Positions 370-57,770 of a stretch of DNA of 60,000 nt are shown here, one piece after another (positions within the stretch are counted from its first letter, which is position 1; every line of letters starts with the position of its first letter). Below the pieces are notes generated by a model. It searched no databases. It worked only from the letters and a program-made list of their open reading frames with translations, and was not told the DNA's origin. Source of the DNA: Malacoraja senta (lineage: Eukaryota); assembly GCA_038087875.1 (NCBI GenBank), contig CM075988.1:6450001-6510000 (forward strand). Reading direction: 5' to 3'. A program made the translations under genes and the position numbers.

Positions 370-741
370 TCACCTCATATTTCGTTTGGGCCGCTTACAC
401 CCCAATGGTATGAATATTGACTTCTCTAACTTCAAGTAACCCTTGCTTTCCCTCTCTCTCCATCCCTCCCCTCCTCCTTCCAGCCAGTCTCACTGCCCCT
501 GATTACATTATATCTCTGCTTGCTTTGTTGTTACCTTCTCCGAGCTAACAATAATCTATTCTGCATTTTCCTTGATCTCCGCCCCCTTTGATGTCTTGTT
601 CTCACACCTTACACTTCCTTATCTCTATATCTCCCTCTCCCCTGACTCTCAGTCTGAAGAAGGGTCTCAACCTAAAATGTCACCCATTCCTTCTCTCCAG
701 AGACGTTGCCTGTCCCGCTGAGTTACTCCAGCATATTGTGT
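370..741 (+). mobile_element. 5'-truncated Penelope-like element (GIY-YIG endonuclease C-terminus + 3' UTR with decayed hammerhead core)
   Basis: 371-439 translates HLIFRLGRLHPNGMNIDFSNFK*, typical of the PLE endonuclease C-terminus. CTGAAGA at 654 is followed by a CpG-decayed stem II/GAAA. Flanked by a 10-bp direct repeat CCACCTATAC (360-369, 742-751). Confidence 0.85.
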
Positions 742-1033
742 CCACCTATACCTGCTTATCTGATTGTTGTGTGGAATCAAAGTGTTCCATACTATCCAGA
801 CCAAAGATAGACACAAAATCCTTTGTGTCTATGTATTTCTGAATTGCCACAATATTTTGTAGAGAGAAGTTCCAGAATTAACGCACGCAAGTTTACGATA
901 AGAAAATCAAAAAAAAAATTGCAGATGCTGGAAATCTGAAACTAAATCACAAAATCGCTGGAAACACTCAGCAGATCAGGCGGCATCTGTGGAAAGAGAG
1001 ACCGACAAGTTAATGTTTCAAGTCAAGGAATTC

Positions 1034-1685
1034 AGGACGGTGCAGTGGTGCAGCGGTAGAGTTGCTGCCTTACAGCACTTACAGCGCCAGAGACCCGGGT
1101 TCGATCCCGACTACGGGTGCTTGTCTGTACGGAGTTTGTACTTTCTCCCCGTGACCTGCGTGGGTTTTCTCCGAGATCTTCGGTTTCCTCCCACATGCCA
1201 AAGACATGCAGGTTTGTGGGTTAATTGGCTTGGTTTCAATGTAAATTGTCCCTTGTGTGTGTGTGTGTTTTTCTTATTTCTTACTGCCTATTGTGCCTCC
1301 TGGCATGTAGGGCAGCAACGAAGGTCCTCCACTCAGTAGTGTTGATTCCTTCAGTTGCTGTTTCCGTAACATATTTGTTTTACGAGACAGGGTTGTTAGC
1401 CCTGTGCTCAACCTCCAACCTGGAGAACCAGTGGATCGCTCTTCGTCTCGCCTCTACCCTTCGACCTGTCCAGCATGGGAGACCCTAACAGGAGACAAAT
1501 CTCCCACTGGCATAGCTCTAGGAGTCACTGAGACACACAAGCTCCCCGACCACGACAAGGTTGCAATCCAACGGGGAGTTGTGTGTGTGTAGGGGAGTGT
1601 AAATGTGCAGGGATTGCTGGGCGGCATGGACTCGGTGGGCTGAAGGGCCTGTTTCCGCACTGTATCTCTAAACTAAAGTAAACTG
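1034..1685 (+). mobile_element. tRNA-derived V-SINE (HE1-like), interrupted by an RTE-derived insertion
   Basis: A-box (GGTGCAGCGGTAGAG), B-box (GGTTCGATCCC), V-domain-like core CGGTTTCCTCCCACA, and CR1-like tail GGGCTGAAGGGCCTGTTTCC...TAAACTAAA. Confidence 0.9.
1268..1578 (-). mobile_element. Non-autonomous RTE/BovB-like bipartite element (5' UTR joined to 3' end)
   Basis: Minus strand starts with an RTE/BovB-type 5' UTR (ACCTTGTCGTGG...GAGCTATGCC...GGACAGGTC...GATCCACTGG). It ends with EWRTFVAALHARRHNRQ* and an AAGAAATAAGAAAA tail. Inserted in a duplicated (TG)n. Confidence 0.75.
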
Positions 1686-1803
1686 AAAAGTAACTCAATC
1701 AGTCGTCGTTGTGTTCAAGCCCATACATTCTACACTGGCACTGGAAACGAGGAGAGGCAAGAATTAGAAGCAACCACATTGTGGAGAACATTAATTGGTG
1801 ACA

Positions 1804-4004: not shown

Positions 4005-4283
4005 TGTGGCACGGTGACGCATCGCTAGAGTTACTGCCTTACCGCACCAGAGACACAGGTTCGATCCTGACTATGAGTGCTGTCTGTATGGAGTTTGTGC
4101 ATTCTCCCCGCGACCTACTTGGGTTTTCTCCTGGTGCTCCGGTTTCCTCCCGCAATCCAAAGACGTACAAGTTTGTAGGTTAATTGGCTTGGTAAAATTG
4201 TAAATTGTCCCTAGTGTGTGTAGCATGGTGATAATGTGCGGAGATCGCTGGTCGGCACGGACTCGGTAAACTAACCTAAACTG
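4005..4283 (+). mobile_element. V-SINE (HE1-like)
   Basis: Same A/B box head, core and TAAAC tail as other copies. Confidence 0.9.
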
Positions 4284-5325
4284 AAGTCGCAGGAGCCCTT
4301 CATTCCTTTCACACTGAAAAGATGAAAATGTGTTCTAGACAAACAAGTAAAGAGTGAGGGCAAAGGAAGAGATGCATCCGAAGAATTTGTGCATTAAATA
4401 AAGAAGATAGTCTTTCTTGGTTGGAATAGGAGCAGATACTTATGTAACTGCAGCAAATTTAATTTGACAATTGATATCCAATTCAACAACGGAAGTTACA
4501 AAAAGCATTTCAGCCCAGCATGGACAGAGATTGGGGCATGCTGTAGGAACCATTTCCATGGGTCAGGAGAGATGATTAGCAGTGGCAGGGTTGCTCTGAA
4601 GGATCTGCATTGCTTTGCAACTACAGTGCATTTCTGGATCGCACGCAGCGAGCCACCTTTGTGTGTGGTCTTGTGGATGATTATATCCAGTCCATGTTAC
4701 TTTACTTTCAATACAAATGTATCTATGGAGGGGGCCTCTAAAAATGCAAAGGATTTCTGGCCAGCACAGAATGTTAGTGTGAACGTCTAAGTCGATTCAC
4801 CTGCGTCAGTGTATAACGAGGCTCCGCTGTTATTGCGATGGTATTACTGCTTCACCTCGTGTTATAGAAAAATGAGCGATGGGGATAAAGGGATAATGTG
4901 GGATAAAGACCAGCAAAACAAATGTATCTTCTGTATTGGAAAAGCCTCAGACGTGAGACATTGCTTGGTGCATTATTGACCCAGCAGCCTGGTGAAATGT
5001 GCTTGCATTACTTCAACCATGTCATTGGGGATATGATGAGCCTACACATGGGCAGTCGAGTAGCCAGGTAGACCAAAAATAAACATAAATCCTGCTCGGA
5101 CATAGAGACAGGCATTTGAGATTAGATTAGATGTTACCAGGTTTAATCATTTCTTGCTGAGAAGGCCATTGATACATACTATACCGCCTGCAAGCTGCTT
5201 CTGGTCATTTGGGACGAGAGTCTTATTCCAAGTTACTGAGGGGAACTATCCAACTGTGGCTCAATACAACTGTGGCACTGGGTCTCTGGAACTGCAGCGG
5301 TGCAATGCTGAGAACAATATTTCCT

Positions 5326-5460
5326 TGTGTAGGAAGTAATTGCAGGTGCTGGTTTACACCGAAGATAGACGCAAGATGCTGGAGTAACTCAGTGGGACAG
5401 GCAGCATCTCTGGAGGGAAGGAGTGGGTGACGTTTCGGATCGAGACCCTTCTTCAGACTG
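5326..5460 (-). mobile_element. Penelope-derived terminal repeat with hammerhead core
   Basis: Reverse complement of the PLE 3' UTR seen at 650-741. Confidence 0.8.
5429..5456 (-). ncRNA. Minimal hammerhead ribozyme core (GUC type)
   Basis: Minus strand CTGAAGA-AGGGTCTCGATCC-GAAACGTC. Confidence 0.6.
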
Positions 5461-7497: not shown

Positions 7498-7684
7498 TGG
7501 TAGGCAAAAATGCTGGAGAAACTCAGCGGGTGCAGCAGCATCTATGGAGCGAAGGAAATAGGCAATGTTTCGGGCCGAAACGTTGCCTATTTCCTTCGCT
7601 CCATAGATGCTGCTGCACCCGCTGAGTTTCCCCAGCATTTTTGTCTACCTTCGATTTTCAGGCATCTGCAGTTCCTTCTTAAAC
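7498..7684. mobile_element. Palindromic Penelope-derived element (GUU subfamily)
   Basis: Arms AAAAATGCTGGAGAAACTCAGCGGG...GGAAATAGGCAA folded back at GTTTCGGGCCGAAAC. 13-bp TSD AAAGATATTTCCC (7485-7497, 7685-7697). Confidence 0.85.
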
Positions 7685-7854
7685 AAAGATATTTCCCAAA
7701 TGAGTCCAGCTAGTGTTCAAGAGAAGCCAACAGGTACTGTTTCTGACGAGAATCACAGTTAGGCAACGTTTCCACGATCCTGGATAATCAACAACTTCTA
7801 CACCCAAAACATCAGCAACAACGCTGCAACAGGCCCCCTAGAGTCAGGAACAAA

Positions 7855-9129: not shown

Positions 9130-9684
9130 CCTCCTACCTCTCCCCCTCTCTCTCCCCCTCTTCCCCTCTCACCATCCTCTCTCCTCTCTCCTCTCTTCCC
9201 TAATCTCTTCCCCTCTCTCCTCTCTCCACCTCTCTCTCCCCCCTCTACGCCTCTCTTCCCCCTCCCCTCTCTCAATCTCCTCTTTCTCTCCCCCCTCTTT
9301 CTCTCCCCTCCCTCTCCCCTCTCTCTCTCCTCTCTCTCCCCTCTCTCTCCCCTCTCTCTCTCCTCTCTCTCCCCTCTCTCTCTCCTCTCTCTCCCCTCTC
9401 TCCCCTCTCTTTCCCCTCTCTCTCTCCCCTCTCTCTCCCCCTCACTCTCCCTCTCTCTCTCTCCTCTCTCTCTCCCCTCTCTCCCCCCTCTTTCCCCTCT
9501 CTTTCCCCTCTCTCTCTCCCCTCTCTCTTCCCTCTCTCTCCCCCTCACTCTCCCTCTCTCTCCCCCCTTTCTCTCCCCTCTCTCTCTCCCCCTCACTCTC
9601 CCCTCTCTCTCCCCATCTCTCTCTCCCCTCTCTCTCTCCCCTCTCTCTCCCCCCATCTCTCCCCCCCTCTCTCTCCCCCCTCTT
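9130..9684. repeat. CT-rich polypyrimidine low-complexity tract
   Basis: About 550 nt almost only C/T. Confidence 0.97.
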
Positions 9685-9970
9685 AGGATGTTTTACTGAG
9701 TTGAAGGTGAGTAAATGAACACCGGTGTCTCTCTATGCACCTTATTCCTCCCCTGAGGCTTGTCCATTCATTACCTCTGCCAATCCTCTCTACAATCTGC
9801 AGATTTAAAAAATAACAATGCTTGATTAATGAACCCAGATATCCACTGCTCTCCTCAGCCTTACAATGAGCTTTGACTTTTCACCTGATTTTCTGGTTAT
9901 GTTAAAAAATCTTCATTTCAGCAGTGTTGTATAGCCAGGCTCACCGTAGTCACAATTACAGATTAAATCT

Positions 9971-10154
9971 TTAAGAAGGAACTGCAGATGCTGGAAAATC
10001 GAAGGTAGACAAAAATGCTGGAGAAACTCAGCGGGTGAGGCAGCATCTATGGAGCGAAGGAAATAGGCAACGTTTCGGCCTGAAACGTTGCCTATTTCCG
10101 TCGCTCCATAGATGCGGCCTCACCCGCTGAGTTTCTCCAGCATTTTTGTCTACC
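9971..10154. mobile_element. Palindromic Penelope-derived element (GUU subfamily)
   Basis: Fold-back arms. 14-bp TSD TACAGATTAAATCT (9957-9970, 10155-10168). Confidence 0.85.
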
Positions 10155-10577
10155 TACAGATTAAATCTAACTCCTGTAGCCCAACATGTTTTGAATTTGT
10201 AATAAAGATCTCTACTAATTAACTAATTTTAACTAAGATCTATAATTAGCTAAGATCTATACTAATGTAAGCTAATTAAGCTACCAGTGCAACTTTAGTA
10301 ATCTCAGCCAACAGTGTTTCTGACTTGAAAGGACACAAGTTGCTGGATTAACTCAGCAGGTCAGGCAGCATCTCTGGAGAACATGCATAGGTAGCTTTTT
10401 GGGTCGGGACCCTTCTCCAGACTAAGTTTCTAAGTTTATAGGAAGGAACTGCAGATGCTGGTTTACACTGTAGATATACACAAACGTCACCCATTCCTTC
10501 TCTTCAGAGATTCTGCCTGTTCCGCTGAGCTACTCCAGCAGTTTGTGTCTATCTTAAGTATCTAAGTTTCTGGCTTA

Positions 10578-12805: not shown

Positions 12806-13429
12806 GTCTTGAGCCTTTGCCCCAACATTCCTGGGATTCCTGCTATTGGGTCGGTCGTGGTCCGGTGGTGAGGCTGGATCTGATCATGTGGATGGGACGG
12901 GATCAGTAACCAACCGAGGCACTTGAAAAACTGCCTGAAAAAATGCACAAACAGACAAGAGCAGGAATGTGGCCGGAGGGGTGTTGACAGCTCAGAATCC
13001 ACCTGTCTTGTGGACCAAAGGGATGCGTGTCATGATGGATGTAGAGTTCAGTGTAGCCGACAGTCTCGGGGACTTGGCAGCTCTGATTGTGGATACGGTA
13101 ATCATTGATCCTCATGATGAAAGGAAGGTTGGACCTCTGTGGATTCCCAACTCCCTGCCTTGTTGAGGTTAGGCAAAAAGTCAAGTTGGTTTGATGAAAA
13201 TATTTTCCTCCATTCCACCTTTATTCTCTGAATAAAGAACTTAGACCTGGATACTTGTGGCAATGGCTGACACTTAGCAGGGAACTGTTGTTAATCATAA
13301 TCATAATCATAATCATACTTTATTAACCAAATATGTTTTGCAAATGAAAACAGACTTGCCCACTTATAGACAAAAGTGCTGGAGAAACTCAGTGGGTGCG
13401 GCATCATCTATGGAACGAAGGAAATAGGC

Positions 13430-13457
13430 AACGTTTCGGGCCGAAACCCTTCTTCAG
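13430..13457 (-). ncRNA. Minimal hammerhead ribozyme core (GUU type) in PLE repeat 13367-13460
   Basis: Minus strand CTGAAGA-AGGGTTTCGGCCC-GAAACGTT. Confidence 0.6.
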
Positions 13458-13673
13458 ACACATATAGTGCTCTTCACAGTTACAGGACAGACACTAAATT
13501 ACTTGTGATGGGTAATGTATGAAACGTGGCAGCTAATTCGTGCAGAGCAATCTCATACAAAGGGCAACAAAATGAGTAACCAAATAAACGATTCTAAATG
13601 TTTAATTGTGGTGCACATATTGACCGAATACCACTGAGAATTGTCATGTCCTTCATCAAATACTTCAACGTGG

Positions 13674-13979
13674 GGGCAGCACGGTGGTATAGCGGTAGAG
13701 TTGCTGTTTTACAGCGCCAGAGACCCAGGTTCGATACTGACTACGGGTTCTGTCTGTGCGGAGTTTGTACGGTCTCCCTGTGACCACGTGGGTTTCCTCC
13801 GGGTGCTCCGGTTTCCTCCCACATTCTAAAGACCTACAGGTTTGTAGATTAATTGGCTTCGGTAAAATTGTAAATTGTCTCTTGTTTGTAGGATAGCGCC
13901 AGTGTACGGGGATCGCCGGTCGGCGCGAGCTCGATGGGCCGAAGAGCCTGCTTCCACACTGTAGCTCTAAACTAAACTA
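13674..13979 (+). mobile_element. V-SINE (HE1-like)
   Basis: Full head, core and tail. Confidence 0.9.
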
Positions 13980-14712
13980 CTGTGTAGGAAGGAACTGCAG
14001 ATGCTGGTTTACACGAAAGATAGACATAAAATGCTGGAGTAACTAAACTACTGTTGTGGAATACTTTAAATACACCCGAGATAGTGGACAAAGTGTAATG
14101 CCTCGTGTGAAAGATGATCCTTCCTGCACTGAAACATTCCTCCAGTGCTTTGTTTTTTCACTCGAGATTCTACCCTTTCCTGTGTCCCCACTGCCACACT
14201 CCCTCAGCACGAGGCTGTGTGCTGCGTAACTTTGAGTGCAATCTCAGGAATGTTACTCGAGTCTTCTAACAGCCAGCACTGAAGCAAGGCCAACGAACGG
14301 GAAAATATTCCACAATTCTAGTTGTTATCTGCACTTGTACAATGAACAATTCCACACTGTCACCATTGTCACATGGTGGGTATTTTTGTCCTGATGCAAC
14401 TTCCAAGGAATGCTCTCTACGTTGTTTAGCTTGAGGCCTACTCCTTCTGGGTTGTGTTGTTTATGGGTGCAAGGGCCACAGAGGGGATTGAAGTTTGCTA
14501 TTCCAAAATTGCAGTAGATAATTACATAAGACGATGTTCAGCCCATCAAACTCCCCCTCCCAAATCCCTTTGGTTGGGAAATCATTCCAATCTTTTTTCT
14601 TTGCCGATCTCTCTCTCTGTGTAGAAACAATCCTAAAGATTAAATTTGCTTTGTGCACCCAAACCTGTATCCACCTTTTCCACTGCCACAGACAACATTA
14701 CAATGATCACTT

Positions 14713-15463
14713 GCGTAGCAAGGAACTGCAGATGCTGGTTTACACCGAAGATAGACACAAAATGCTAGAGTCGCTCAGTGGGACAGACAGCATCTCTGGA
14801 GAAAAGGAATGGGTGACGTTTCGGGTTGAGACCCTTCTTCAGATTGAATAATACAGAGAGTCGATATGTCAAGGAGGACTCTTTCGAACTTCTACAGGTG
14901 CACAGTAGAGAGCATGCTGACCGGTTGCATCGTGGCTTGGTTCGGCAACAGACAGAACCCGTAGTCAGGAGCGGAAAAGACTACAAAAAGTAGTAAACAC
15001 TGCCCAGTCCATCATCGGCTCTGACCTCCCTACCATATAGGGAATCTATCACAGTCGCTGCCTCAAAAAGGCTGGCAGCATCATTAAGGACCCACACCAT
15101 CCTGACCACACACTCATCTCCCTACTACCTTCAGGTAGAAGGTACGGGAGCCTGAAGACTGCAACGGCCAGGTTCAGAAATAGCTACTTCCCCACAGCCA
15201 TCAGGCTATTAAACTCAACTGAAACAAATCTCTGAACATTAATAGACCATTATCTGTTTATTTGCATTTTATCTGCTTATTTATTGATGTATGTATTTAT
15301 TTATATAATGGTATATGGACTCACTGATATGTTCTGCATTCAAGCCTACTATATTCTGTTGTGCTGAAGCAAAGCTAGAATGTCATTGTCCTATCTGGGA
15401 CACATGACAATAAACTCTCTTGACTTGACTTGACGAGTTACTCCAGCATTTTTTGTGTCTCTC
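14713..15463. mobile_element. PLE repeat containing a nested Rex1-type LINE 3' fragment (about 14860-15434, +)
   Basis: 14-bp TSD TACAATGATCACTT (14699-14712, 15464-15477). Nested piece encodes FYRCTVESMLTGCIVAWFG...KDPHHP...LPSGRRY...FRNSYFPTAIRLLN and ends in (CTTGA)n. Hammerhead core on minus strand at 14815-14842. Confidence 0.8.
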
Positions 15464-15714: not shown

Positions 15715-16090
15715 AAAAAAGAGGCAAAGTGCTGGAGTAACTCAACGGGTCAGGCAGCATCTCAAAATGATCTCTGATGAAGGGTCCCGACCTGAAACAT
15801 CATCCATCCATGTTCTCCAGAGATGCTGAAGATAGACGCAAAAGCCTGGATCAGGCACGATCCCTGGAAAAAAGGGATAGGTGACGTTTCGGATCGAGAC
15901 CCTTCTTCAGTCTGATGAAGGGCCTCGACCCCGAAAAATCACCTATTCCTTTTCTCCAGAGATGCTGTCTGACCCGCTGAGTTACTCCAGTTTTTTGTAT
16001 CTATCTTCAGTTTAAACCAGCATCTTCCTACACATATTCTCCAGAGATGCTGCCTGAAGCGCTGAGTTACTCCAGCACTTTGTGTCCTCT
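15715..16090. mobile_element. Cluster of PLE repeats with back-to-back hammerhead cores
   Basis: CTGATGA cores at 15774 (+) and 15912 (+); intact minus core at 15883-15910. Confidence 0.75.
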
Positions 16091-18295: not shown

Positions 18296-19085
18296 TGTTC
18301 ATTCAAAGCACAGATCAATACATGTCTGGATATTAAGGGAGACACATGGTTAGGAGTTAGTGCAGGAAAATGGAGCAGGGGTAAGTGATCAGGCACAGTG
18401 TGGATGAATGACAGAGCCTGCTGACAGGTCTGGAGAACCTGCTCTTGTTCTATCAGCCTGCAGAAGGATTCCCACCCACAACAAAACCCGATCCATTCCC
18501 TCCACAGATAGGCTCACAGAGTGATACAGTGTGGAAACAGGCCCTTCGGCCCAACTTGCCAACACCAGCCAACATGTCCCAGCGACACTAGTCCCACCTG
18601 CCTGCGCTTGGTCCATATCCCTCCAAACTTGTCCTATCCATGTGCCTGTCTAACTGTTTCTTAATCATTGCAATAGTCCCAGCCTCAACTACCTCCTCTG
18701 GCACCTTGTTCCATACAGCCACCACCAATACACGGTACACATGTCAGATGCTGCCTGACCCACTGAGTTACTCCAGCACTTTGTGTTTTACGCAAGATTA
18801 AAGCACCTGCGAGCTCTGCGGTTACTTTTCCCTCTGGGCTAGTCAGCTGCAATCCTGCACTTTGGTGGATCTGAATAATGAACCCACTACCTGGTGCTGA
18901 TGGCAGCGACTTACCCCCCAGCAACTCAGTTCTGCTGAGGAATCCACAATTGGGAAAGAGAAGTAAGAGTGGAAACTATCGAAGGTAGACAGTGGGTTGG
19001 TGCAACGGTGTAAAGTGAGTCTTGGCAAATCATCAGCATACCTAATAGCTCTCTTCCGCTTCACTCCCAGTGACATTAGTGCAGG

Positions 19086-19275
19086 TAGACAAAAATGCTG
19101 GAGAAATTCAGCGGGTGAGGCAGCATCTATGGAGCGAAGGAAATAGGCAACGTTTCGGGTCGAACGACCCGAAAAGTTGCCTATTTCCTTCGCTCCATAG
19201 ATGCTGCCTCACTCACTGAGTTTCTCCAGCATTTTTGTCTACCTTCGATTTTCCAGCATCTGCAGTTCCCTCTTA
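19086..19275. mobile_element. Palindromic Penelope-derived element (GUU subfamily)
   Basis: 14-bp TSD GACATTAGTGCAGG (19072-19085, 19276-19289). Confidence 0.85.
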
Positions 19276-19536
19276 GACATTAGTGCAGGGATGTGTAACG
19301 CAAGGCTGACAATACACTGGAGCCCATTTCACACAACCACACTGAAAAAATCTATGCCCTGGCTTCACACTGGAGTCACAACCATTGAACTAATCTTCCA
19401 ACCCCTCCTCATCCCCATGCTCCACATCTCGATTCAACGCTGGGAACAGTCCAATAGCATTGATGGGAATTTTTCCCACTAGGATCGGGCAACAGAAATT
19501 AAAGTCTTAACAATGCAAGTTTTCTAGCCCTATGTG

Positions 19537-20445: not shown

Positions 20446-20990
20446 CGCTGCATTGTCAGAGTTTTATGCTCTGGACCAACGAGAAGGAAATATATTGTAT
20501 TTAAAAAACTGGCATCAGAGTGTTGCAGGTGGCAGAGCTAGTGCCACATGGCACCATATACCGGGTTGGATCCTGACCGTGGGTGCTGCCTATGTGGAGT
20601 TTGCATGTTCTTCCTGTGACCACGTGGGTTTCCTCCAGGTGCTCCGGTTTCCTCCCACTTCCAAAAGACATGTGGTCTCAGCAAATTGCCCCCAGTTTGT
20701 AGGGAATGGGATGACATAGAACTAATGTGAAGGGATGATCAATGGTCAGCGTGGACCTTGTGGGTTGAAAGGCCTGTTTCTATAATTTATCTCTAAACTT
20801 TAAAAATCCAGGAGAAAGCAAACCGCTGGAGAACTCAGCTGGTCAGGCAACATTTGCGGAGGGAATGGACAAACAACATTTTGAGTTGGGACATTAGTAA
20901 ACTGTTCCTACATATATGTTTTGCACATATTGCTTCCATGTCGTATCTATGGTCGGTTACATGCATTCCATAGAATGTATGGGTAAGGTA

Positions 20991-21202
20991 GATAATACAA
21001 AAAGCTGGAGTAACTCAGCAGGACAGGCAGCATTTCTGTAGCGAAGGAATGGGTGATGTTTCAGGTCGAGACCCTTCTTCAGACTCGACCCGAAACGTCA
21101 CCTATTCCTTCTCTCCAGAGATGCTGCCTGTCCCGCTGAGTTACTCCAGCTTTTTGTGTCTATCTTCGGTTTAAACCAGCACCTGCAGTTCCATCCTACA
21201 CA
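20991..21202. mobile_element. Palindromic PLE repeat (GUC subfamily)
   Basis: Fold-back arms, approximate TSD TATGGG(G)TAAGGTA. A similar element lies at about 21755-21965. Confidence 0.8.
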
Positions 21203-22811
21203 TATGGGGTAAGGTACATGTTTTTGTTGATCCTCCAGTAAGATATTGGATGTAGAAAGTGGATGCTGTGCAGAATTATTTATTTAATCTCGGTGCTTGA
21301 GTGACATGTGGATTTATTTATCTGTGCAACTGGAACACAATATGAGGCTTTTGCTTTGCTCAACATCACCGCCTTGTTTATAATTCTGCCCTGTTTAAGT
21401 GCGATCACCTCTGCCTGTCTGCTTGAGTCAGGCGGTATGAGGCGAATCCCCCTCAGGTGATTTAAGGAGGTTCCTTACAAGAGGCCGAGTGGTTTCCTGT
21501 TGACGGGAAGAGTCCTGTGGAATGCACCCAGGTACTCAGAACCCTCAAAAAAAATCTCCGCCATCATCTGTCTTTTAAACTCCTGGGGGACAGATTAGCC
21601 TGACTGCGACAAAAAAAAATACAAAGAGGATTTTCTTCGACAGAAACGCAGTGATGTCAAGGCTGGGGGACACCTGGCTTCAGGCAGCAGTGAGCAACCT
21701 GCCCTTTACCAACTGCTCCCAGTGGCTTCATACTTACTGTGACACACTGGGGCAGGCACAAAAAGCTGGAGTAACTCAGCGGGACAGGCAGCATCTCTGG
21801 AGGAAAGGAACGGGTGACGCTTAGGGTCGAGAAGTCTGAAGAAGGGTCTCGACCTGAAACATCACCCATTCCTTCTCTCCAGAGATGCTGCCTGTCCCGC
21901 TGAGTTACTCCAGCTTTTTGTGTCTATCTTCAGTTTAAACCAGCATCTGCAGCTCCTTCCTACACACGGGGGCAGTTCGAGTATGGACAGGGCAAAAACG
22001 CTCGGGCACAGGGCAGCCAGTACATGTGTGGGGGTCTTTGAATGCCATAGGGATCTCTCACTCTCTCTCTCATATTGTTTAGTTTAGTTTTGATTACATT
22101 AGTTTGTTGTCACGTGTACTGAGGTACAGTGAAAAGCTTTTTGTTGTGTGCTAACCAGTCAGCGGAAGGACAATGCATGATTACAATCGACCCATCCACA
22201 GTGTACAGATACATGATAAAGGGAATATTTTAGTGCAAGATAAAATCCAGTAAAGTCTGATTCAAGATAGTGCGAGGGTCTCTAATGAGGTAGATAGTAG
22301 CTCAGGACTGCTCTCTAGTTGGTAGATGTTCCCGTTGACTGACAGCAGCTCTCTCTATCTTTTGTTTTTGCTTTCTATCACTATAAAACACTTTCTATAA
22401 AACACTCTTGACTCTTGATACATCACCCTACCCTGACGTCATCTACTGCTGCAGTTTTCTCTTGCGACATTTCTCCATCTGCTTCCTCAACCCTCGGCAT
22501 TATATTTCCCCCCTTCACTTTCCCCCATTTGCTTCAGTCTTCCTCCACTTTTTCCCATGTCTCCCGAGTTGTATTTTCCAATGTCCTTATTTAGAATTTT
22601 TCCGTTACAGTTTCCTCTCACCATCACTGTGCTGTGATCTGTGGTTCCTCACCTTCTGTTCTCTCCCGTTTCTCCTCTGGTTTGTCTTCAATGTTTCCCC
22701 TCTTTCACTTGTATTCCCTCTTTAATTGTTTCCATTTCTTTAGATTTTCTATTTCTGTATCACTCCTGTTTTCAATCACGCACCACCTCTTGCTCTTGGT
22801 CCCTTTTGCAG

Positions 22812-33231: not shown

Positions 33232-33329
<98 letters not shown>

Positions 33330-33332
33330 TCA

Positions 33333-33391: not shown

Positions 33392-33396
<5 letters not shown>

Positions 33397-35003: not shown

Positions 35004-35250
35004 GTGTAAGAAGGAACTGCAGATGCTGGTTTACACTGAAGACAGACACAAAATGCTGGAGTGAAGTAGCAGGTCAGGCAGCATGTCTGGAGCAAAGGAA
35101 TAGGTGACGTTTCAGGTCGAGACCCTTCTTCAGACTGAGAGTCAACTAGAGGGCAACTAGAGGTATGAAATGGTTCAGAACAAATCAGAGCCGCACCAAT
35201 GACCAAGGAAAGGTGAAGCCCACAATGGTCCATTGTTGGCTGTGGAAGAC
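35004..35250 (-). mobile_element. PLE 3' UTR fragment with hammerhead core at 35106-35133
   Basis: Minus strand CTGAAGA-AGGGTCTCGACCT-GAAACGTC. Upstream UTR matches the 45341-45920 copy. Confidence 0.8.
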
Positions 35251-36129
35251 CTGTAGCCTTGGCGTGCAGAGTGCACTGTTGTACTTGTGTACAGCTTAAC
35301 TGTATTCATGTATAGTATGATTTTATTTGATTGCAAACAAGAGCTTTTCACTGTATCTCGACTCGTGTGTCAACCAATACAGGTGTTCTTTGAGGAATAG
35401 ATGTTGGCCCGAAATTTGGGGAAAATACTCTGCTCTTTGCTGAATGATACCAAGGATCCATTTTCATTTGTGTCAGAAGGAACTGCAGATGCTGGTTTAA
35501 ACCGAAGATAGACACAAAAAGCTGGAGTAACTCAGCGGGTCAGACAGCATCTCTGGAGAAAAGGAATAGGTGACATTGCGGGTCGAGACCCTTCTTCAGA
35601 CCCATTTACATTTGTCAGGGTCCCTGGATTGAAGTCTCATCCAGGGCCACCTCAGGCAGATTCCACAGAACCATAAGTCTGGATGTAATACTCAGTATCG
35701 GGAATGGGATTAAAAACCCACCAACTCCTGACTCACAGCTGAAGCTATGTCCACTGAGCCCAAGTAAAGTGTAAAATATCCAAACTCAGCCACACTTTAC
35801 AAGCTGGTGAAAGTCCAAGAATGCTGGAAATCTGAACTGAAAAACAGATAATGCTGGAAACACTCAGCAGGTCAGTCAGCAGCAGTGGAAGCCGTTAATG
35901 TTTCAGGTCAATGAACCCTCGGACTGGAAGTCTCACCTGTTTCACTTTCCACTGATCCTGCTTGACTACTGAGTGTTCCCAACATTTTTTTTCTTTGTAT
36001 CATGCCACAAGCTGTCGCCTTCTCGATAGGAACCAAGTTCGCAAAGGTTACACCAAGACGTATGGATGGCTTTCCAGAGCAGGAATGACTGAAAACATAC
36101 TCATTCTAGCTTCCACCAGATCTGACTGT

Positions 36130-39846: not shown

Positions 39847-40149
39847 ACAGTGGCGCAGCGGGTGGAGCTGCTGCCTCACCGCGCCAGAGACCCGGGTTCG
39901 ATGCTGACCATGGGTGCTGTCTGTGTGGAGTTTGCATGTTCTTCCTGTGACTGCGTGGGTTTTACTCTGGTGCTCTGTTGGCCTCCCACATCCCAAAGAC
40001 ATGCTGGTTTGTAGGTCAATGGGCTTCTGTAAACTGCCTTTAGTGTGTTGGATGTGAAAGTGAGATTAAATAGTGATCGTTGGTCGACAGGACAAGGTGG
40101 GCCGAAGGGCCTGGTTCAATGCTGTATCTCTAAAGTAAACTAAATTAAA
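39847..40149 (+). mobile_element. V-SINE
   Basis: Head, core and tail. Confidence 0.88.
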
Positions 40150-40869
40150 CGTACAGTGTAGGAAGGAACCGCAGATGTTGGTTTAAAGTGAAAGTAGACA
40201 CAAAAAGCTGGAGTAACTCAGAGGGTCAGGCAGCATCTCCGGAGAACAAGGATAGGCGATGTTTCAGGTCAAGACCCTTCTTCAGACTGAGACAGTCTCG
40301 ACCTGAAGCGTCACCTATCCATATTCTCCAGAGATGCTGCCTGAGCCGCTGAGTTACTTTGTTACCCCAGCTTTTAAACTAAAAACGTACAGCTTGTTTT
40401 TATGTGGTCCCAGTAACCATGGGCTGAATGCATGATAAATGGTTTTAAAAAAAGACGCTGTCTTGCTCTTGAATCCTGGTGAAGTTTGTGAACTATCTGT
40501 GGAGCTGTGACTGTGGGAGGGGCGGTGAGCATGGAGCTGCAGGTACCAGCAGCTGTGAGAGGAAGTGGAGGCTTCCAGCCACACCATAGAACCAGAGGCA
40601 CCAGACGGAGTACTGCGGGTGCAGACTCAGAATGTTGTTTACCTGAAGATGGAAATAAAAATCACAATGCGTTACTGAGGAAGGGCGATAATCATCGTAT
40701 TAAAAACCATACCTCTAATCGAGGAGTCCTCAGATTGCTTTGAGGATTAAAGTCTGCATAGAATGTACCAAGAAATTGTCATTCAGGAGATTGTGCAGAC
40801 AACCCACTGCCCCTATATTCTGTCAGTGAATAAATTCCTCACTTACTCCCATTCCCTACCTGTCCCCAC

Positions 40870-42975: not shown

Positions 42976-43714
42976 CTCGAGACCCTTTTTCAGATCTGAA
43001 GAAGGGTCTCGACCCGAAAAGTCACCCATTCCTTCTCTCCAGTGATGCTGCCTGTCCCGCTGAGTTACTCCAACATTTTGTGTCTATCTTTGTTTTAAAC
43101 CAGTATCTGTAGTTCCTCCATACACATGTGATTTATATCTGTCCATTCTTGCATATACATGTGCCTGTCCCTGAAACATCATTATTTAATTTGCTTCAAA
43201 GGGATTGGGAACCAGACCCCGAGGAAAGAAATATTTTAAATAATGTTACATTAAGCATTTCCTGTCCTAACCTGTTTTCACATTGGGCTGGGCAAGCAAC
43301 AAAGGCACAATAGTTATGCAGACTTGGAATTAAGTTGGTCCCAGATCTGATCTGGACGGTTAAAGAAACATCCCAATACTTTCAGCAGCAAAAATGGAGC
43401 CTGCAAGACTGGTGCAGGCCCAGGAGACTGAATCCCATGGTCTACACCTCCCCCTGCCTCTCACCCAAGCAGGCAACTTAACACCACCCCTTAAAAGTCC
43501 ACCATTCACCACACTGTCCTAATGGGGTTTGCGTCCATAGACTACATTCACTGACAGTGGATGGGCCCCGACCTCAATCCATATGGTCCTTGCTCCTAGT
43601 AGGAACCTTCCTGACCAGGCCAGATTCAAGAAGAACCAATTGCAAAATGGGAAAATGGCAAGTCCAAGGGGGCACAGTTGGCAACAGATGCCGCCTGGAA
43701 CTCAACATGTTGGG

Positions 43715-45340: not shown

Positions 45341-45920
45341 TGTAGGAAGGAACTGCAGGTGCAGGTTTATACTGAAGATAGTCACAAAGTGCGTAAGTAA
45401 CTAAGCGGGTCAGGCAGCATCTCTGACGATAAGGGATGGATGATGTTTCGAGTTGGAACCCGACTTCAGCCTGAAAGTACAGGGCGGGGGGAGGGGGTGT
45501 GATGGAAACTAAAGGCCAGAACAAATCATGGCCGGCAACAGATGACCAAGGAAGGGTGGAGCCCATAATGGTTCATTGTTGGCTGGGGAAGAGGTGATGT
45601 GGAAGGGATGCAGGGATCTGAACAGAGGAACTAGTAGGATGACTAAGGTGGGGGGGGGGGAGTGGGGGGGAGAGATGGAATGTAGGGATTACATGAAATT
45701 AGAGAAATCAATGTTCATGTCGCTGGGTTGTAAGCTGCCCAAGCGAAATATGAAGTGCTATTTCTCCAGTTTGAGTGTGGCCTCACTAGCGTAGGAGCCC
45801 AGTACAGAAAGGTCAGTATAAGAATGGGAAGGGGAGTTTAAATATTTGGCAACCAGGAGATCGCGTCGGCCAAGGCGGAAGGAGCGTTCAGCAAAACCAT
45901 CCGCCAGACTGCTCTTGATC
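45341..45920 (-). mobile_element. Penelope-like element 3' fragment (decayed GIY-YIG domain + UTR)
   Basis: Minus translation SLADGFAE...LVAKYLNSPSHSYTDLSVLG...KLEK*HFIFRLGSLQPSDMNIDFSNFM*. Confidence 0.85.
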
Positions 45921-46224
45921 ATGGGGGCTTGAGAGGTCTCCCATTCCTAGATACATAACCCCTTATTCACGAAGGTCTCTCCCGGGAGATCCATGCACTG
46001 TTACCCCCTCCCCTCCCCTCCCCTCCCCTCCCCCCCTTTTCCCTTCCACTCATCCGAATTTATTTACCGGGATCATCCCTGCCTTTCTCCCTCAACCTCA
46101 CGGCAAACTTGGGCTGTAGGTCAGGATGGAAGTTTGGTTCAATGGTTCAATGGTGTTTCATTGTCACATGTGCGAAGTGCAAACGCACAGTGAGATTCTT
46201 TTCTCGCAGTAGTCTGGTAGAGTT

Positions 46225-47987: not shown

Positions 47988-48715
47988 ATGCCTTATAGAG
48001 CCATAAACCCAGGTTCAATCCTGACCTCTGATCCTGTCAGTGTGGAGTTTGCACATTCTTCCTGTCAACGCATGGTGTCTCACTTGTAGGTTTGTAGCTT
48101 AATTGCCCTCTGTAGCATTACCCCTAATGCGTTTTTAGTGGATGAGAACGTGGGATAACACAGAACGAGTTGGAATGGATAATCATCAATGGCCAGCATG
48201 GACTTGGTGGGCCGATGGGCCTGTTTCCCTGCTGCATCTCTAAACTAAACTATTCTTCAATGTAGCAAAGAAATATAACTTTTTCAACGTCAATTATTCC
48301 CAGATATAGGGGAAATATTCTTCCACCCGGTCCTGAAAATATCTCAGCCCCAGACTCAAAGGATCGCATTTAATTATCTGCACATTTCTTTCCACCTTGC
48401 CTTCAATTCCCGAGCTCCCTGTGGCCTCTCTCAATGGCCAATCTGTGCCAAATTATGGGCAATTTGGGGCTATGGATTTTGCCCACTGGAAACTGGATTG
48501 TCCAAACATAGATGGAATCCTTACAATCAATAAATATTCCATCAAGGCACCACCGGTCACAAAATGAAACAACAGAATCTCGTCCACCTTGCCCAGCAGT
48601 TGTTTATCCACCAGTCTAATTGAGATCCAATTAATGCCATTTGACAAATATTCCACTTTTCAGCCGTGCTGCTCTATGGCACAGTTCATATACAACGTAT
48701 CCCAATGTGGACTTA

Positions 48716-48903
48716 ATGTTTAAGAAGGAACTGCAGATGCTGGAAAATCAAAGGTAGACAAAAATGCTGGAGAAACTCAGCGGGTGAGGCAGCATCTACG
48801 GAGCGAAGGAAATAGGCAACCCTTCTCGACCGGAAATGTTGCCTATTTCCTTCGCTCCATAGATGCTGCCTCACCCGCTGAGTTTCTCCAGCATTTTTGT
48901 CTA
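48716..48903. mobile_element. Palindromic Penelope-derived element (GUU subfamily)
   Basis: 14-bp TSD CCAATGTGGACTTA (48702-48715, 48904-48917). Confidence 0.85.
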
Positions 48904-50544: not shown

Positions 50545-51873
50545 ATAGTCTCCACCATTCTGAGGGGCCGAGGAGTGCTTGGATAAACACTGTTGAGCCA
50601 GACTGAGAGAATTGCTTCATTGCTCACCACTCCCACTGTTTCCCTTGAACCCCATATGGCTATGATGCCGCAAATATTGTTTCTTGCACATGACAATTAA
50701 GGTCCATCAGTTTCCCTTTTATAAAAATTAAAGTTGGCACAGATTTTAAAAGTCAATTAATCACCAGGCATTAAACCCATCAGCCTGCCACAGTTTGAAA
50801 CCCAATGGGACTGTGTCAGTTTTGCAACAACGCTGAATCTAACAAGAAAAAGACACAAAGCACTGGAGTAACTTTGCAGGTCAGGCAGCATCTCTACAGA
50901 ACATGGATAGGTGACAATTCTGGGACTGAAATGGGGTCCCGACCCGAAACGTCGCCTACCCATGTTCTCCAGAGGTGCTGCCTGACCTGTTGAGTTACTC
51001 CAGCGCTTTGCATCTTTTTTTGTAAACCAGCAACCACAGTTGCGCCTCTATGTGTGCTGATCCCAGAGAAAGTACATCTACAATCACGGCATTACAATCG
51101 CGTCACCATTTCAAATCTCCACTCCAACACCAGCATTTCTTACTTTATCTGAACACAGTGGATGGCTCGATTACAATCATGTCTTGTCTTTCCGCTGACT
51201 GGTTAGCACGCAGTAAAAGGTTTTCACTGTACTTCGGTACACGTGACAATGAACTGAATTAAACTAAACTAAATCTAACCATGTTGATATAAACACCACT
51301 GCGATCAGGCTGTGTCTTAGGGGAGAGGGTTAGAAAATAAAAAATATTACTTGGACAGCACTGATTTTCGTCAACAGTGAGTTCATTTCCAGAGTGTACG
51401 CAATGGAGCTCAGCCGCAGTAACCCCTATCCCTGTCCTGTGGTGTTTCAGTATCTGATGACCACTGTGAAAAATCACATGAAGATGAAGAATGCTCACTT
51501 AGAAAACGACAAATAGAGTAGAGTGCCTTTCTCATCCTCAGCACATCACAGAGTAACTTACAGCCAATGATGTACTTTTAAGATAAGTTGCTGCTGCAAT
51601 GCAGAGAATATTTTGTGCTCTGCAACATCCCATGAACTTCCATGACTAAACATTAGGCTTTCATAAGGTCATGGAGAGGTACAGCACGGATACAGGCCCT
51701 TTGGCCCACCAAGTCCGTGCTAACCGTCATCCAGCCATTTACCCTCATCCTACATTAATCCAATGTTTTATTTTCCCCATAGTCTCACTTATTATTGCCC
51801 CCTCCCCAAAACAAATATTCTACCAATCACCTATAACCCAGAGGCAATTAACAGAGGCTAATTAACCTTAGGA

Positions 51874-53883: not shown

Positions 53884-53984
53884 CAACGCATGCGAATGCT
53901 GGTGAAGGGGGTTTTGATGAACAGCTCCACTGCTGTGTTAGCATGCTACCTTACAGATGAACTTCTGAGCTCCGATGCAATATG

Positions 53985-54570
53985 ACAGACTGTCATGAAG
54001 CTGGAAAGGGTGCGGAGAAGATTCACGAGGATGTTGCCAGGACTCAAGAGCCTGAGCGATAGGGAGAGGTTGGGCAGCCTGGGACTTTATTCCTTGGAGC
54101 GCAGAAGGCGTTGAAGTGATCTAATAGAGATGCGTAAAATCATGAAGGGAATAGATATGATGATTTATTTCCCAGAGTAGTGGAATCAAGAACCTGAGAA
54201 AAGCACGCAAAGTGCTGGAGTAACTCAGTGGGTCAGGCAACATCTCTGGAATACATGGATCAATAGACAATAGGTGCAGGAGTAGGCCATTCGGCCCTTC
54301 GAGCCAGCACCGCCATTCAATGTGATCATGGATCGGTGAGGTTTCAGGTCAGGATGCTTCTACAGAAGGGCCTTTCTGCTCTCCTGCTATTTTGAAGAAC
54401 CAGAGGACATATGTTTATGGTAGAGAGGGGAAGGATTTAATAGGAACCTGAGGGCAACCTGTTCACTCAGAGGGTGTTGGGTGTATGGAAAGAGGAAGCA
54501 GATGAGACAGGTATTATAACATCATGTAAAGGGCACTAGGACGGGTATATGGGGCTGAAGGGCCAGATTC
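53985..54570 (+). mobile_element. CR1 fragment interrupted by PLE and CR1-tail pieces
   Basis: KLERVRRRFTRMLPGL...LGLYSLERRR remnants. Confidence 0.75.
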
Positions 54571-57563
54571 CACGCTGAATATCTCTATGGCTTCACACTC
54601 ATATATTCAGCATCATGCATGTATAAATAACACTCTCCCTTCGCCACCATTGAAATAGGTGCAGGTCCCCTGTGCTGTACCGATCCCACCTTTCACACAT
54701 TGACTCATCTCTAGATCTACATGTTTACTTTCCATTCATTTACTAAATGTAAAAATATCAAAGGTAGGTTGAGAGGAAGGACAGACAATAAATGCTGGAA
54801 TAACTCAGGGGGTCAGGCAACATGTCTGGAGAAACGGAACAGGTGACGTTTCGGTTCGGGACCCTTCTACAGATTGACGTTGCTGCTGCTCCTTGGTACT
54901 TTGAAGAACCAGAGGGCATAGGTTTACGGTAGTGAGGGGAAAGATTTAATAGGAAGCTGAGGGGCAATTTTTTTACTCAGAGAGTGGTGGGTGTATGGAA
55001 AGAGCAGAACCCTTCTTCAGACGTAAGGGGAAGGATGGTTTATTGGGCAAGCCATTGTAGGAGGGGAGCGTTTTAAAGAACATTCCCAGGTGCTCATAAC
55101 CCCCACATGTCCCTCGTGCCTGCCATTGGGAATTTCCAGCTTCCATGCCACAAATTCCTGGCAGCTGTGCTAAGCTATGTTTTTTTTTCTAAATGTAATT
55201 AGTTTTCTGCACGATAGTAAGCTTTGAGAATCCTGTCACAGAGCAGCTGCAAGAGAACAGAGAGAAGACCAAGCAAAGATCCATTAATGTAACTGACTCC
55301 AATCAGATATAAACCACACTGGACTGCAGAGTGCATTTGCCGATGTTTTGAGTCGCTTATATTCCGTGCCACAGAGTGATCATTAGTTCTCAATAGTATG
55401 TTGTACTGACTTGGGCCCAGACAAGTAGCGAGTAGTGTTAAGACTTCTCCACGGTGAAACGAAACACAGTTTACTCTACCCTGAGACTCCAGCTTTATTG
55501 AAGATGTTTAGAGAGAATTCCAGGTCTAGTCAATGACTCTCTATTGCGAAGGTTCCTCGTCAGATCATGGCTGAGACGGAGCTTAAATGAAAGTGAGAAA
55601 CATCCAGCTGCAATCTTTCACTAGCACGGTGCGGCTGTTTTACGAGGTTAGAATGCAAAACCAAAGCATGCTCATCAGATTCCTTGTGCCTTCAAGTGTC
55701 TGTTGTCTGTCAGTGCGGCCTCCTTCAGGGATCGTCCTCCCTCCTTTTCTCCTCCCTGTCTTGCTTGTCTCCCTAAACTCGCACATAAGAATTTAAAAAG
55801 TGAAAGGTTTGCTGTTCAATTCAACAGCAGACTCTTGTGGAAAATCATAACCTTGCTTCTTCTGGTGTGGCGGCTCTAAGCTCATTAGAGAACAACCAGG
55901 TTCCTGACAAAACCCACAACTGAACTGTCCTACCAGCAACTAGTTTAGTTTAGTTTATTGTCACGTGTACCGAGGTACAGTGAAAAGCTTTTGTTGCGTG
56001 CTAACCAGTCCGCGGATAGACAATACATGATTACAATCGAGTGTAGTCAAGAGTGAAGAGTGTTTTATTGTCATATGTCCCAGATAGAACAATGAAATTC
56101 TTACAGATACTGCAATCTTGAATCATGTACTTGTACAGATACTTGATATAAGGAATAACGTGAATAACATTTAGTGCATGGTTAAGCCAGTAAAGTTCGA
56201 TCCAAGATAGACCCTCAAACTATTTTTAATTGGACTTTACTGGCCTTTACCTTGCATGAAACGTTATTCCCTTTATCATTTATCTGTACTTTATGGATAG
56301 CTCAAATGTAATCATGTATTGTCTTTCCACTGACTGGTTAGCACGCAACAAAAGCTTTTCATTGTACCTCGATACACGTAACAATGAACTAAACTAAACT
56401 AAACTAAACTAAATTAAACTAAACTAAACTAACTGGGTAGAACTTGTATTATGCCTTATACAACCTTAGGACCGGTGCTTTTTATTTATAGACGATTAAT
56501 AAACATACATGTCATGTACCCGAAAAACAAAATAACAGCATTTAACTTTTTAGTTAAATGTGCCTCCAATGGTCTTTTTAGAGGTTGCGATATGCTGCAC
56601 ATTTGCAGTGCAGTAGATTGGAAGAAGTATGAGTGAATCACTGCCTCACCTGGAAGGACCGTTTGGATCCCTAGATGGTGATAACGGAGGAGATACGCGG
56701 CAGGCACTGCATCTCCTGCAGTTACATATGACGGTGCCAGAGAAGGGGAGCATTTGGCGAAGAGGACAAGTTGACCAGGGAGTTATGGAGAGGACAACGG
56801 GTGGCATTAAATGCACATAAGACTGATATGAATAAATAACTGTTAAAAGTGTTGAAATAGAGGGAGGAAACTAGTTCTGCCATTCGCAGGAACGGTTGTA
56901 CAAGCTTTGCACTTTTGAATTGAATAGTTTCACGGGAGCTGATTCATATATGGGGGTGTCCATCTATTGAGCCTTTGTAACCCAGAGATAGTCCGTGGAT
57001 ACATTTAATGCAGTTATGAACGTGAAGGGAAAAGGAATGGAAAGGTATTATTGTGGGGTTCGATGAAGTAGGTGGAAAGAATGCATGCAGAGCATAAACA
57101 CAGACATAGATTTGTTAGAGCAATTGATGTATTCTACTCTGAGACTGTGCAATTCTCCAGATAATCTTTACATGGTGTCAGTGGATCCTTCACACATGCC
57201 TGAGAGGGTAGGCTGGGCCTCAGTGTAATTTCTCACGTAGAAATTGATTCTTTAAGTGCTCGTTCAATACCATGCTGAAGTATTATTTGGTCTAGCCTTT
57301 GAGAGGCCTTGAACAATGTGATCCCGGAGGTTATACAGCTCCTGCAGATTGAAAGTTGGGCACATTAAAGTTCTTGAATAAGAAGAGCAGGGTCTGAAAA
57401 AGTAAGAATGTAACCTGAGTCTAATAAGAGGTGGACTGCCAAAACAAAGTGTTTAACATGAGGGAAGGTAACAGTCAGGAACACTTTGGGCTCACTGTAC
57501 GCTAGGATGTCTGAAAAATATTCTCCTTCTGCCAAAATGCATTTCCAGCAGCCCAAGAGAGAG

Positions 57564-57770
57564 GTGTGGGAAGGAACTGCAGATGCTGGTTCACACCGAA
57601 GATAGACACAAAATGCTGGAGTAACTCAGCGGGACAGGCAGCGTCTATGGAGAGAAGGAATGGGTGATGTTTCGGGTCGAGACCCTTCTTCAGACAAAAT
57701 GTCACCCATTCCTTCTCTACAGAGATACTGCCTTTCCCGCTGAGTTACTCCAGCATTTTGTGTCTATCTT
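57564..57770. mobile_element. Palindromic PLE repeat (GUC subfamily)
   Basis: Approximate 15-bp TSD CAGCCCAAGA(G/C)AGAG. Confidence 0.8.

Follow-up and report, generated by a model that had tools for sequence, protein, structure and literature searches.

In 60,000 nucleotides (nt) of the Malacoraja senta genome (GenBank assembly GCA_038087875.1, contig CM075988.1, positions 6,450,001 to 6,510,000 of the forward strand; this whole stretch is referred to below as the window), a 28-nt motif with the form of a hammerhead ribozyme recurs on both strands, raising the question of whether these copies are working ribozymes or remnants of another element. The original prediction was that they belong to a retrozyme-like, non-autonomous family derived from Penelope-like elements (PLEs), very high in copy number and able to cleave host transcripts of either strand. 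We arrive at a partly different answer: with a probability of roughly three in four, the motif is a minimal hammerhead carried in the tail module of a PLE, the module is dispersed through the genome as dead fragments, and cleavage is probable in the source elements.

The motif consists of CUGAAGA, an extra A, a GGGU/ACCC stem, GAAA and CGUC. All of the catalytic boxes (C3-U4-G5-A6-N7-G8-A9, G12-A13-A14 and A15.1/U16.1-H17) are present in four subfamilies. A9 and G10.1 are separated by one unpaired A, and helix II, closed by the pair G10.1-C11.1, consists of 4 base pairs (bp), GGGU/ACCC, with a YYCG loop that differs by subfamily (CUCG, CCCG, UUCG or UCCG). GAAA is followed by C-G-U-C (or U), which places the predicted cut after GUC or GUU. 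Helix III has no loop, the ACGU within GAAA-CG-UC forming a 4-nt palindrome; with positions 15.2/16.2 palindromic and loop III missing, helix III would need two copies of the motif. The published marks of minimal PLE hammerheads are a nucleotide between A9 and G10.1, the G10.1-C11.1 pair, palindromic 15.2/16.2 and little or no loop III (PMC4209133), and the predicted assignment to this minimal, dimer-type class is supported by every sequence feature that can be checked.

Occurrences of the motif in the window far exceed chance. The pattern CTGANGA-N(4-30)-GAAAC matches 15 times against 1.41 expected (maximum 5 in 100 shuffles), and 13 of the 15 matches belong to the repeat and share a 25-nt string, CTGAAGA-A-GGGTCTCGACCC-GAAAC, followed by GTC; those at 18935 and 34692 are unrelated. 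All six cores that had been described as near-intact (26041 on the plus strand; 5429, 14815, 15883, 29518 and 35106 on the minus strand) and all seven described as decayed (654, 15774, 15912, 19848, 21836, 42996 and 52762) were found, although the total had been undercounted: about 30 cores are recognisable, including further minus-strand cores at 13457, 21082, 25731, 29359, 35599, 39224, 40285, 42056, 52666, 54872 and 57693 and plus-strand cores at 27706 and 50926, and blastn maps 67 repeat units across the 60 kb. Scanning the 1.94-Gb assembly from which the window was taken, we obtained 45,154 exact matches to a 28-nt descriptor covering the subfamilies and 81,340 matches with at most two mismatches from the commonest 32-mer, the reversed control giving 0 in both cases, which bears out the very high copy number that had been claimed. 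Contigs from sequencing runs (probably of DNA) likewise show an enormous copy number, and many of them diverge from the window copy at 26039-26041.

The connection to a PLE is visible within the window itself. At 344-439 on the plus strand lies the remnant of the C-terminus of a PLE open reading frame (ORF), whose translation ends in HLIFRLGRLHPNGMNIDFSNFK before a stop codon. It is followed by a pyrimidine-rich spacer at 440-653 (+), the unique part of the pseudo-long terminal repeat (pseudo-LTR), which runs from the stop codon to the core and ends in CTCAGT, and then by a CpG-decayed core (654-681) with a short-form tail at 654-743 (unit 620-743, 3' limit +93; here and below, signed positions are counted from the start of the core). 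This core thus stands 215 nt past the stop and on the strand of the ORF. The older PLE 3' end at 45341-45946 on the minus strand is built alike, with a GIY-YIG remnant (45650-45946), a spacer, a decayed core (45442-45469) and a long tail reaching 45341, so that the proposed link between the repeat and a PLE C-terminus holds at both places.

Longer relatives elsewhere confirm the arrangement. The window's C-terminus has its relatives among elasmobranch proteins with RVT_1 followed by GIY-YIG, and homologues with the same domain order pass the Pfam cut-offs (P0001 for RVT_1 at 69.1 bits, P0004 for GIY-YIG at 23.2 bits). Within the assembly, 67 scored places match a PLE protein at about 1e-173, many of them with open frames of 560-1300 amino acids (aa). 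One of the loci, L031, holds a 1161-aa ORF with reverse transcriptase (RT) and GIY-YIG that ends in the same HLIFRLGRLHPNGMNIDFSNFK motif, its domains scoring below the Pfam cut-offs (RVT_1 at 646-815, 26.3 bits against 29.6; GIY-YIG at 1066-1099, 19.3 bits against 22.6); its stop codon is followed by a 120-nt pyrimidine-rich spacer (4170-4288), a core of the UUCG/GUU type and a tail to +94. The same strand and order of ORF and core hold in L004 and L005, and spacers equivalent to that at 440-653 are found in L004, L005 and L031, all three of which also have inverted truncated copies. In L032 and L033 the start of the element can be read, as a core, a 132-nt tail, about 30 nt and then the ATG of the ORF, L032 being a partial tandem in the pseudo-LTR layout. 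The repeat is therefore the 3'-terminal module of an endonuclease-bearing PLE family in a genome of elasmobranch type, and its core lies on the sense strand at the pseudo-LTR position, where PLE hammerheads are known to lie.

Some further features of these elements deserve mention. The stop codon of L004 and L005 lies within CAG|GTAG, which resembles a 5' splice site, and the pyrimidine tract of the spacer (440-653 in the window, L004, L005 and L031:4170-4288) ends in CAG at the core, resembling a 3' splice site. The N-terminal half of the L031 ORF (L031:847-1720) overlaps a region of proline-rich tandem repeats that is open in all three forward frames. A search for a full-length element that started from the GIY-YIG remnant led to L030, with a 390-aa open frame, which was rejected because it holds just the C-terminal part of an element, the frame running on into the adjoining DNA. 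The interior of the element was also sought downstream of 53 units with long tails, where the sole flank in common was an unrelated short interspersed element (SINE).

The dispersed copies were characterized in a 250-kb sample made up of the window and 19 arbitrarily placed 10-kb stretches, within which blastn against real reference copies mapped 143 units, 67 of them in the window and the remaining 76 in the 190 kb outside it. The palindromic arms had spoiled a MAFFT/nhmmer profile built for the unit (243 match columns from a 150-nt seed), and blastn took its place. The units end at either of two 3' sites about 38 nt apart, +86..+96 (48/143) and +121..+132 (51/143). Their 5' ends concentrate at -5..+2 (57/143, of which roughly a dozen are, by eye, longer copies whose spacers are too divergent to align) and at +9..+20, inside stem II (22/143), and 20 of the 143 extend past -11. 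Of 62 units whose 5' end falls near the core, 52 have T at position -1 and 41 have G at -2, and similarity vanishes upstream of -3. A solo unit comprises core and tail over 95-135 nt, and its 5' boundary, 2-3 nt ahead of the core, is sharp.

Fifty of the 143 units are joined head to head in 25 pairs and 93 are solo, so that the cores found on either strand, as had been predicted, reflect inverted pairs and not two ribozyme genes. A script detected target duplications of 10-16 bp flanking 9 of 25 pairs and 11 of 93 solos; copies whose end is fixed by such a duplication mostly have GT as their first two bases, immediately ahead of the core. The two arms of a pair usually begin at different points, one near -2 and the other within stem II; in third-subfamily pairs the arms join inside stem II, and the CUGAAGA box is lost. 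Neither Tandem Repeats Finder (TRF) nor a comparison of same-strand neighbours revealed a tandem array of the unit in the window. Two other accounts of the 5' end were rejected, namely that solo units start at the cleavage site (they start at -3..0 and not at +28) and that GT plus the C at the start of the core forms a second GUC cleavage site (duplication-defined copies start with GT, before that C). PLEs are marked by 5' truncation, an adjacent inverted truncated copy and an optional tail of 30-40 bp (PMC8557442), and the two 3' ends, the truncation and the inverted pairs of the present copies match these hallmarks.

Combined with the structure of the long elements, these observations suggest how the fragments may arise. 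On its sense strand a long element has, in order, an ORF with RT and C-terminal GIY-YIG, a stop, a pyrimidine-rich spacer of 120-215 nt, the 28-nt hammerhead and a tail of 95 or 135 nt. By analogy with a PLE of Anolis studied in vitro, reverse transcription would start at internal sites in the tail and be primed on both target strands; in that system both target strands are cut and extended, and unprocessed RNA is the main template (PMC11167929). Cutting and extension of both strands would yield pairs with two element 3' termini inside one target duplication; microhomology, frequently within the palindromic stem II, presumably joins the converging cDNAs. Solo units starting 2-3 nt before the core would be run-off cDNAs made on an RNA that has its 5' end at that point, probably its transcription start, with the 5'-proximal tail copy as the template. 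The TCAGTCT at the 5' end of the unit fits what we take to be an initiator motif. Since a full transcript would contain the tail twice, once after the transcription start and once at its 3' end, initiation at the 5'-proximal copy would give run-off cDNAs of just 95-135 nt.

Outside the window, the genome does contain tandem arrays. A search with a 45-nt probe spanning the boundary between the tail and the 5' untranslated region gave 477 matches in the genome; about 45 of the 100 matches listed lie in regular arrays, and six arrays were read in detail. Four of them are clearly internally deleted PLEs: L034 (period 384 nt), L040 (254 nt) and L041 (219 nt) have a core in each repeat, and L035 (275 nt) has one in its repeats except for a single repeat with no match within 4 substitutions. 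Two adjacent repeats of L034 that were compared are identical, and two of L035 differ at 19 positions. The prediction of a retrozyme-like family therefore fails for the window and finds partial support in these PLE-derived arrays elsewhere. The deletion junctions of three independent arrays, L035, L040 and L041, fall within a few bases of one and the same AC-rich site, ..CCACACCCAACTC.., about 55-60 nt into the ORF; reverse transcription in Anolis starts in an AC-rich stem-loop early in the ORF (PMC11167929), and by analogy the present site may be a further start or jump site.

The remaining two arrays, L036 (period 138 nt) and L037 (165 nt), have no core, and their units start at +28, exactly in L036 and with an ambiguity of 1 nt in L037. 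Position +28 is the first base after the predicted GUU cut. The downstream ends of the L036 and L037 units differ. If a 5'-OH produced by the hammerhead were ligated, the expected product would be just such a 5' end at the cut, joined to an arbitrary 3' end. One of these core-less arrays ends at the normal 3' terminus of the element; this terminus, that of the long tail, is shared by L036/L038 and L041, indicating that they were made by the element's own reverse transcription. It is possible, although we hold this only tentatively, that the core-less arrays are DNA fossils of small circular RNAs, in which the cut 5'-OH had been ligated to a 3' end and the circle copied repeatedly by the PLE RT. 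Alternatively, stalling of the RT at the folded core could also give arrays that start at +28.

Junctions at the same position were also counted genome-wide, with matches classified by hand among the first 100 of each search, so that the figures are rough. In the young subfamily (9,326 intact 27-mers as the base), about 38 of 89 non-array matches listed (287 in all) were junctions at +28, compared with about 26 of 58 at +24 and, on a larger base, about 4 of 100 listed of 1,715 at +32, corresponding to an approximately 4-fold excess of +28 over +24. In the older and larger subfamily about 30 of 100 matches listed (of 1,051) were junctions at +28 and about 17 of 100 listed (of 1,451) at +24. This junction evidence for cleavage in vivo is suggestive, though mixed. 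Given the tandem arrays with one hammerhead per 219-384-nt unit and the two core-less arrays that begin at the predicted cleavage product, we consider that the hammerhead of the source elements probably cleaves at least occasionally.

Several results weigh against the view that the tail module of this PLE carries a hammerhead that still works in source elements. In its native spacer context helix I is just GU with AC (or GC), 2 bp, and longer pairing is accidental, occurring in inverted pairs such as that at 26041. A hammerhead-type fold reaches -3.9 kcal/mol in the monomer against a minimum free energy of -13.0 kcal/mol, and -12.7 against -32.3 kcal/mol in the dimer, and folding a solo unit gives no significant structure (z = -0.56); this weakness agrees with the poor cleavage published for minimal motifs, whose monomers were uncleaved and whose dimers cleaved little (PMC4209133). 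No Rfam hammerhead model reached its gathering score in the window or E <= 10 in 25900-26250; in our own reading, these models expect the helix III hairpin that the minimal variant lacks. Helix II shows no compensatory change across subfamilies, the stem being invariant. A descriptor with 10.2 not G and 11.2 not C found no other minimal-hammerhead family, its 678 matches (100 listed) belonging to the same one. The commonest double change, GAGU..ACAC, puts an A.A mismatch into helix II, and the sub-subfamily that carries it, reading CTGAAGAAGAGTCTCGACACGAAACGTC, accounts for about 60 of those 100 listed matches; since it was amplified, a master copy with a broken stem still spread. Units starting at +26..+32, around the cut, number 4 of 143, the older subfamily has no clear excess of +28 over +24 junctions in the hand count of matches listed, the long copy of L033 starts at -28 and not at -2, and the probable transcription start at the 5' end of the unit is read from sequence only.

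Conservation, taken as the average share of the most frequent base per column once CpG columns are removed, gives a mixed answer. The core boxes form the best-conserved block (0.93), followed within the motif by stem II (0.87) and loop II (0.75), and the expectation that the core should be more conserved than its flanks holds against the upstream flank (0.64); in the tail a value of 0.79 at +28..+40 is followed by one of 0.91, nearly equal to the core, at +41..+58. The gradient is what a hammerhead predicts, yet it is not decisive, because the latter block is as conserved as the core.

These points raise the question of whether the 28 nt are kept for a non-catalytic role, as a protein binding or positioning site or as a core promoter, with the hammerhead form vestigial. 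Such a role would account for the conservation of the adjacent tail, for the spread of the variant with a broken stem II and for the 5' end of the unit, which fits an initiator and precedes the core by 2-3 nt; moreover, Anolis hammerhead mutants insert normally in vitro (PMC11167929), and PLE clades without a hammerhead proliferate well (PMC8557442). We nevertheless regard it as doubtful, since the catalytic positions, the extra nucleotide, the closing G-C pair and the palindrome are kept in four subfamilies in which loop II and the flanks vary, two arrays begin at the predicted cut, and the Anolis motif cleaves with its protein present (PMC11167929). If, at the other extreme, the repeats formed an active retrozyme-like non-autonomous family, dispersed copies would cut host transcripts and circular RNAs would carry propagation. 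The 45,154 intact cores would suit such a family, as would the tandem arrays elsewhere with one hammerhead per 219-384-nt unit and identical neighbouring units and the two core-less arrays beginning at the cleavage site. In the window, however, the copies are solos or inverted pairs and form no tandem array, the solos have no second copy for helix III and a helix I of 2 bp, an inverted pair folds into a hairpin of -143.9 kcal/mol, and minimal hammerheads have been reported to stay uncut as monomers and to cleave little when dimeric (PMC4209133); together with the rarity of 5' ends at the cleavage site, this makes an active family of that kind unlikely.

That hairpin is formed by the pair at 25927-26134, which as RNA has z = -15.25 and buries the core, and inverted pairs in general would be near-perfect hairpins of about 95 bp. 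Such near-perfect inverted repeats flanked by duplications recall foldback DNA transposons (similar to miniature inverted-repeat transposable elements) or hairpin small-RNA genes unrelated to retrotransposition, and several microRNA precursor models do match below threshold. This origin is nonetheless highly improbable: each arm is bounded on its outer side by the PLE 3' terminus, at one or other of its two alternative sites, the arm junctions vary, solos outnumber paired units (93 vs 50), and long copies continue into the PLE ORF. The microRNA matches, to MIR533, mir-3170 and others, are all far below gathering scores, and in the stretch searched (25900-26250) they come from the inverted repeat. 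Separately, we note that annotation pipelines could mistake inverted pairs for microRNA genes and that the hairpins might feed small-RNA pathways.

Under the preferred reading, of a PLE tail module dispersed as fragments, the copies in the window are dead on arrival and the hammerhead is a passenger. The predicted self-cleavage of host transcripts is accordingly unsupported: judging from the modelled folds, cutting by window copies is unlikely, because solos lack a partner for helix III, helix I has 2 bp and competing folds are more stable, and because inverted pairs bury their core in the hairpin.

The individual copies of the window illustrate this range of forms. Solos with a long tail on the minus strand lie at 5326-5460 (core 5429-5456, limits -4..+130), 14712-14846 (core 14815-14842) and 35004-35137 (core 35106-35133); a further minus-strand solo, at 35469-35601, has a 14-bp target duplication and starts with GT directly before the core, and that at 13366-13459 (-; core 13430-13457) belongs to the subfamily with a UUCG loop and GUU triplet, its core being of the type found in L031. 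In the pair at 25927-26134 (+) the left arm is a reverse-complemented tail (+129..+15) and the right arm a perfect core (26041-26068) with a short tail, and the pair at 15813-16024 has a core on each strand (15883-15910 on the minus and 15912-15939 on the plus strand). Other pairs retain one core and a target duplication, at 20989-21203 (core 21055-21082, minus strand; 13 bp), 21754-21966 (core 21836-21863, plus strand; 14 bp) and 57564-57773 (core 57666-57693, minus strand; 15 bp). Second-subfamily pairs are seen at 40156-40358 (core 40258-40285, minus strand) and 50851-51044 (core at 50926, plus strand). Pairs of the third subfamily occur at 7507-7687, where the arms meet in stem II and the duplication AAAGATATTTCCC was recognised by eye, at 9970-10165 (junction in stem II, duplication present), at 19082-19285 (duplication of 12-14 bp) and at 48713-48903 (16 bp). 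The core at 42996-43023, in a copy spanning 42995-43128 (+), is preceded by an 18-nt inverted core stub. At 29263-29546 (-) two units stand 186 nt apart, with cores ending at 29359 and 29545; they share about 45 nt of upstream flank, which identifies a local tandem duplication of unit plus flank and not an array of the retrozyme type.

Two PLE tails abut the (TTTAG)n end of a SINE-like repeat of about 290 nt (13690-13980 and 39860-40155 in the minus reading; also at 10320-10570), the copies beside the tails being 74% alike over 286 nt, and several target duplications of PLE units resemble TAAGTTT/AAACTAA. The PLE endonuclease may favour the AT-rich microsatellite tail of this SINE. Large low-complexity and microsatellite blocks, comprising (CA)500, CT-rich, CA-rich and GTGA-rich sequence, lie at 32393-33392, 9137-9684, 22814-23305 and 27108-27600.

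Minimal PLE hammerheads have been known since 2014, and what they do is a standing question: their cleavage in vitro is poor, the sole reconstituted system inserts without needing them, and some clades lack them. On this question the present genome offers unusually rich natural material, with intact cores in the tens of thousands, a young PLE whose frames are open over long stretches, and deletion derivatives preserved as perfect tandem arrays, two of which begin at the predicted cut. Should the core-less arrays prove to be fossils of circles, they would, together with the hammerhead-bearing arrays of 219-384-nt units, constitute genomic evidence that the feeble minimal hammerhead of a PLE cuts in vivo in a vertebrate and that retrozymes arise continuously from a live PLE by internal deletion, and the several hundred thousand solos would be run-off ('strong-stop'-like) cDNAs from a 5'-proximal RT start site. 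For annotation, such motifs are best masked as PLE tail fragments and not recorded as ribozyme genes or microRNA hairpins.

Most of what we describe has counterparts in known systems. The minimal hammerheads of PMC4209133 are likewise of type I, with CUGANGA and GAAA boxes, the unpaired nucleotide, the G10.1-C11.1 pair, no loop III and a palindromic 15.2/16.2; like the present ones they sit in the flanking repeat of PLEs and are dispersed as thousands of single motifs, some on opposite strands 100-700 bp apart. They differ in that helix II has 6-8 bp in Schistosoma and Drosophila and 4 bp here, in that the motif is 'extremely variable' there and nearly uniform within this genome, and in that the largest number reported (about 9,000, in Xenopus) is roughly a tenth of the copy number found here; cartilaginous fishes are not mentioned in that study. 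The Penelope of D. virilis shares the 2-bp helix I and, immediately 5' of the hammerhead, a pyrimidine tract with a terminal AG, which there is the 3' end of an intron; it departs from the present motif in a 2-nt palindromic insertion in helix III and a bulged helix II (PMC4209133). In the Poseidon PLE of Anolis carolinensis (PAc), too, the hammerhead marks where the pseudo-LTR meets the ORF, and insertions have their ends at two internal sites of RT initiation further downstream, in the tail; the Anolis ORF starts inside the hammerhead (PMC11167929), whereas here, by sequence, the ATG lies about 160 nt after the start of the core, beyond the tail.

Non-LTR retrozymes are defined as units of about 150-450 bp repeated in tandem head to tail, every unit bearing a type I hammerhead (PMC7229834). 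The arrays found outside the window resemble these animal retrozymes, with tandem units of 219-384 nt and one type I hammerhead each, whereas the window copies are not tandem and the hammerhead is here minimal and not canonical with loop-loop contacts. According to the available portion of bioRxiv 10.64898/2026.07.22.740005, retrozymes occur in the one chondrichthyan sampled there and derive from PLE pseudo-LTRs; by their sequence, the four core-bearing arrays fit both the definition and this proposed origin. Beyond that chondrichthyan, as far as that portion goes, we found nothing specific on hammerheads of cartilaginous fishes in the literature. Minimal hammerheads in PLEs, their dispersal by the thousands, the PLE tail, inverted copies and the link between retrozymes and PLEs are thus already published, and what is new is their scale in a genome of 1.9 Gb, a solo unit with sharp limits, and arrays that lack the core and begin at the cut. 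The repeat is a very abundant example of a known thing, not a new system.

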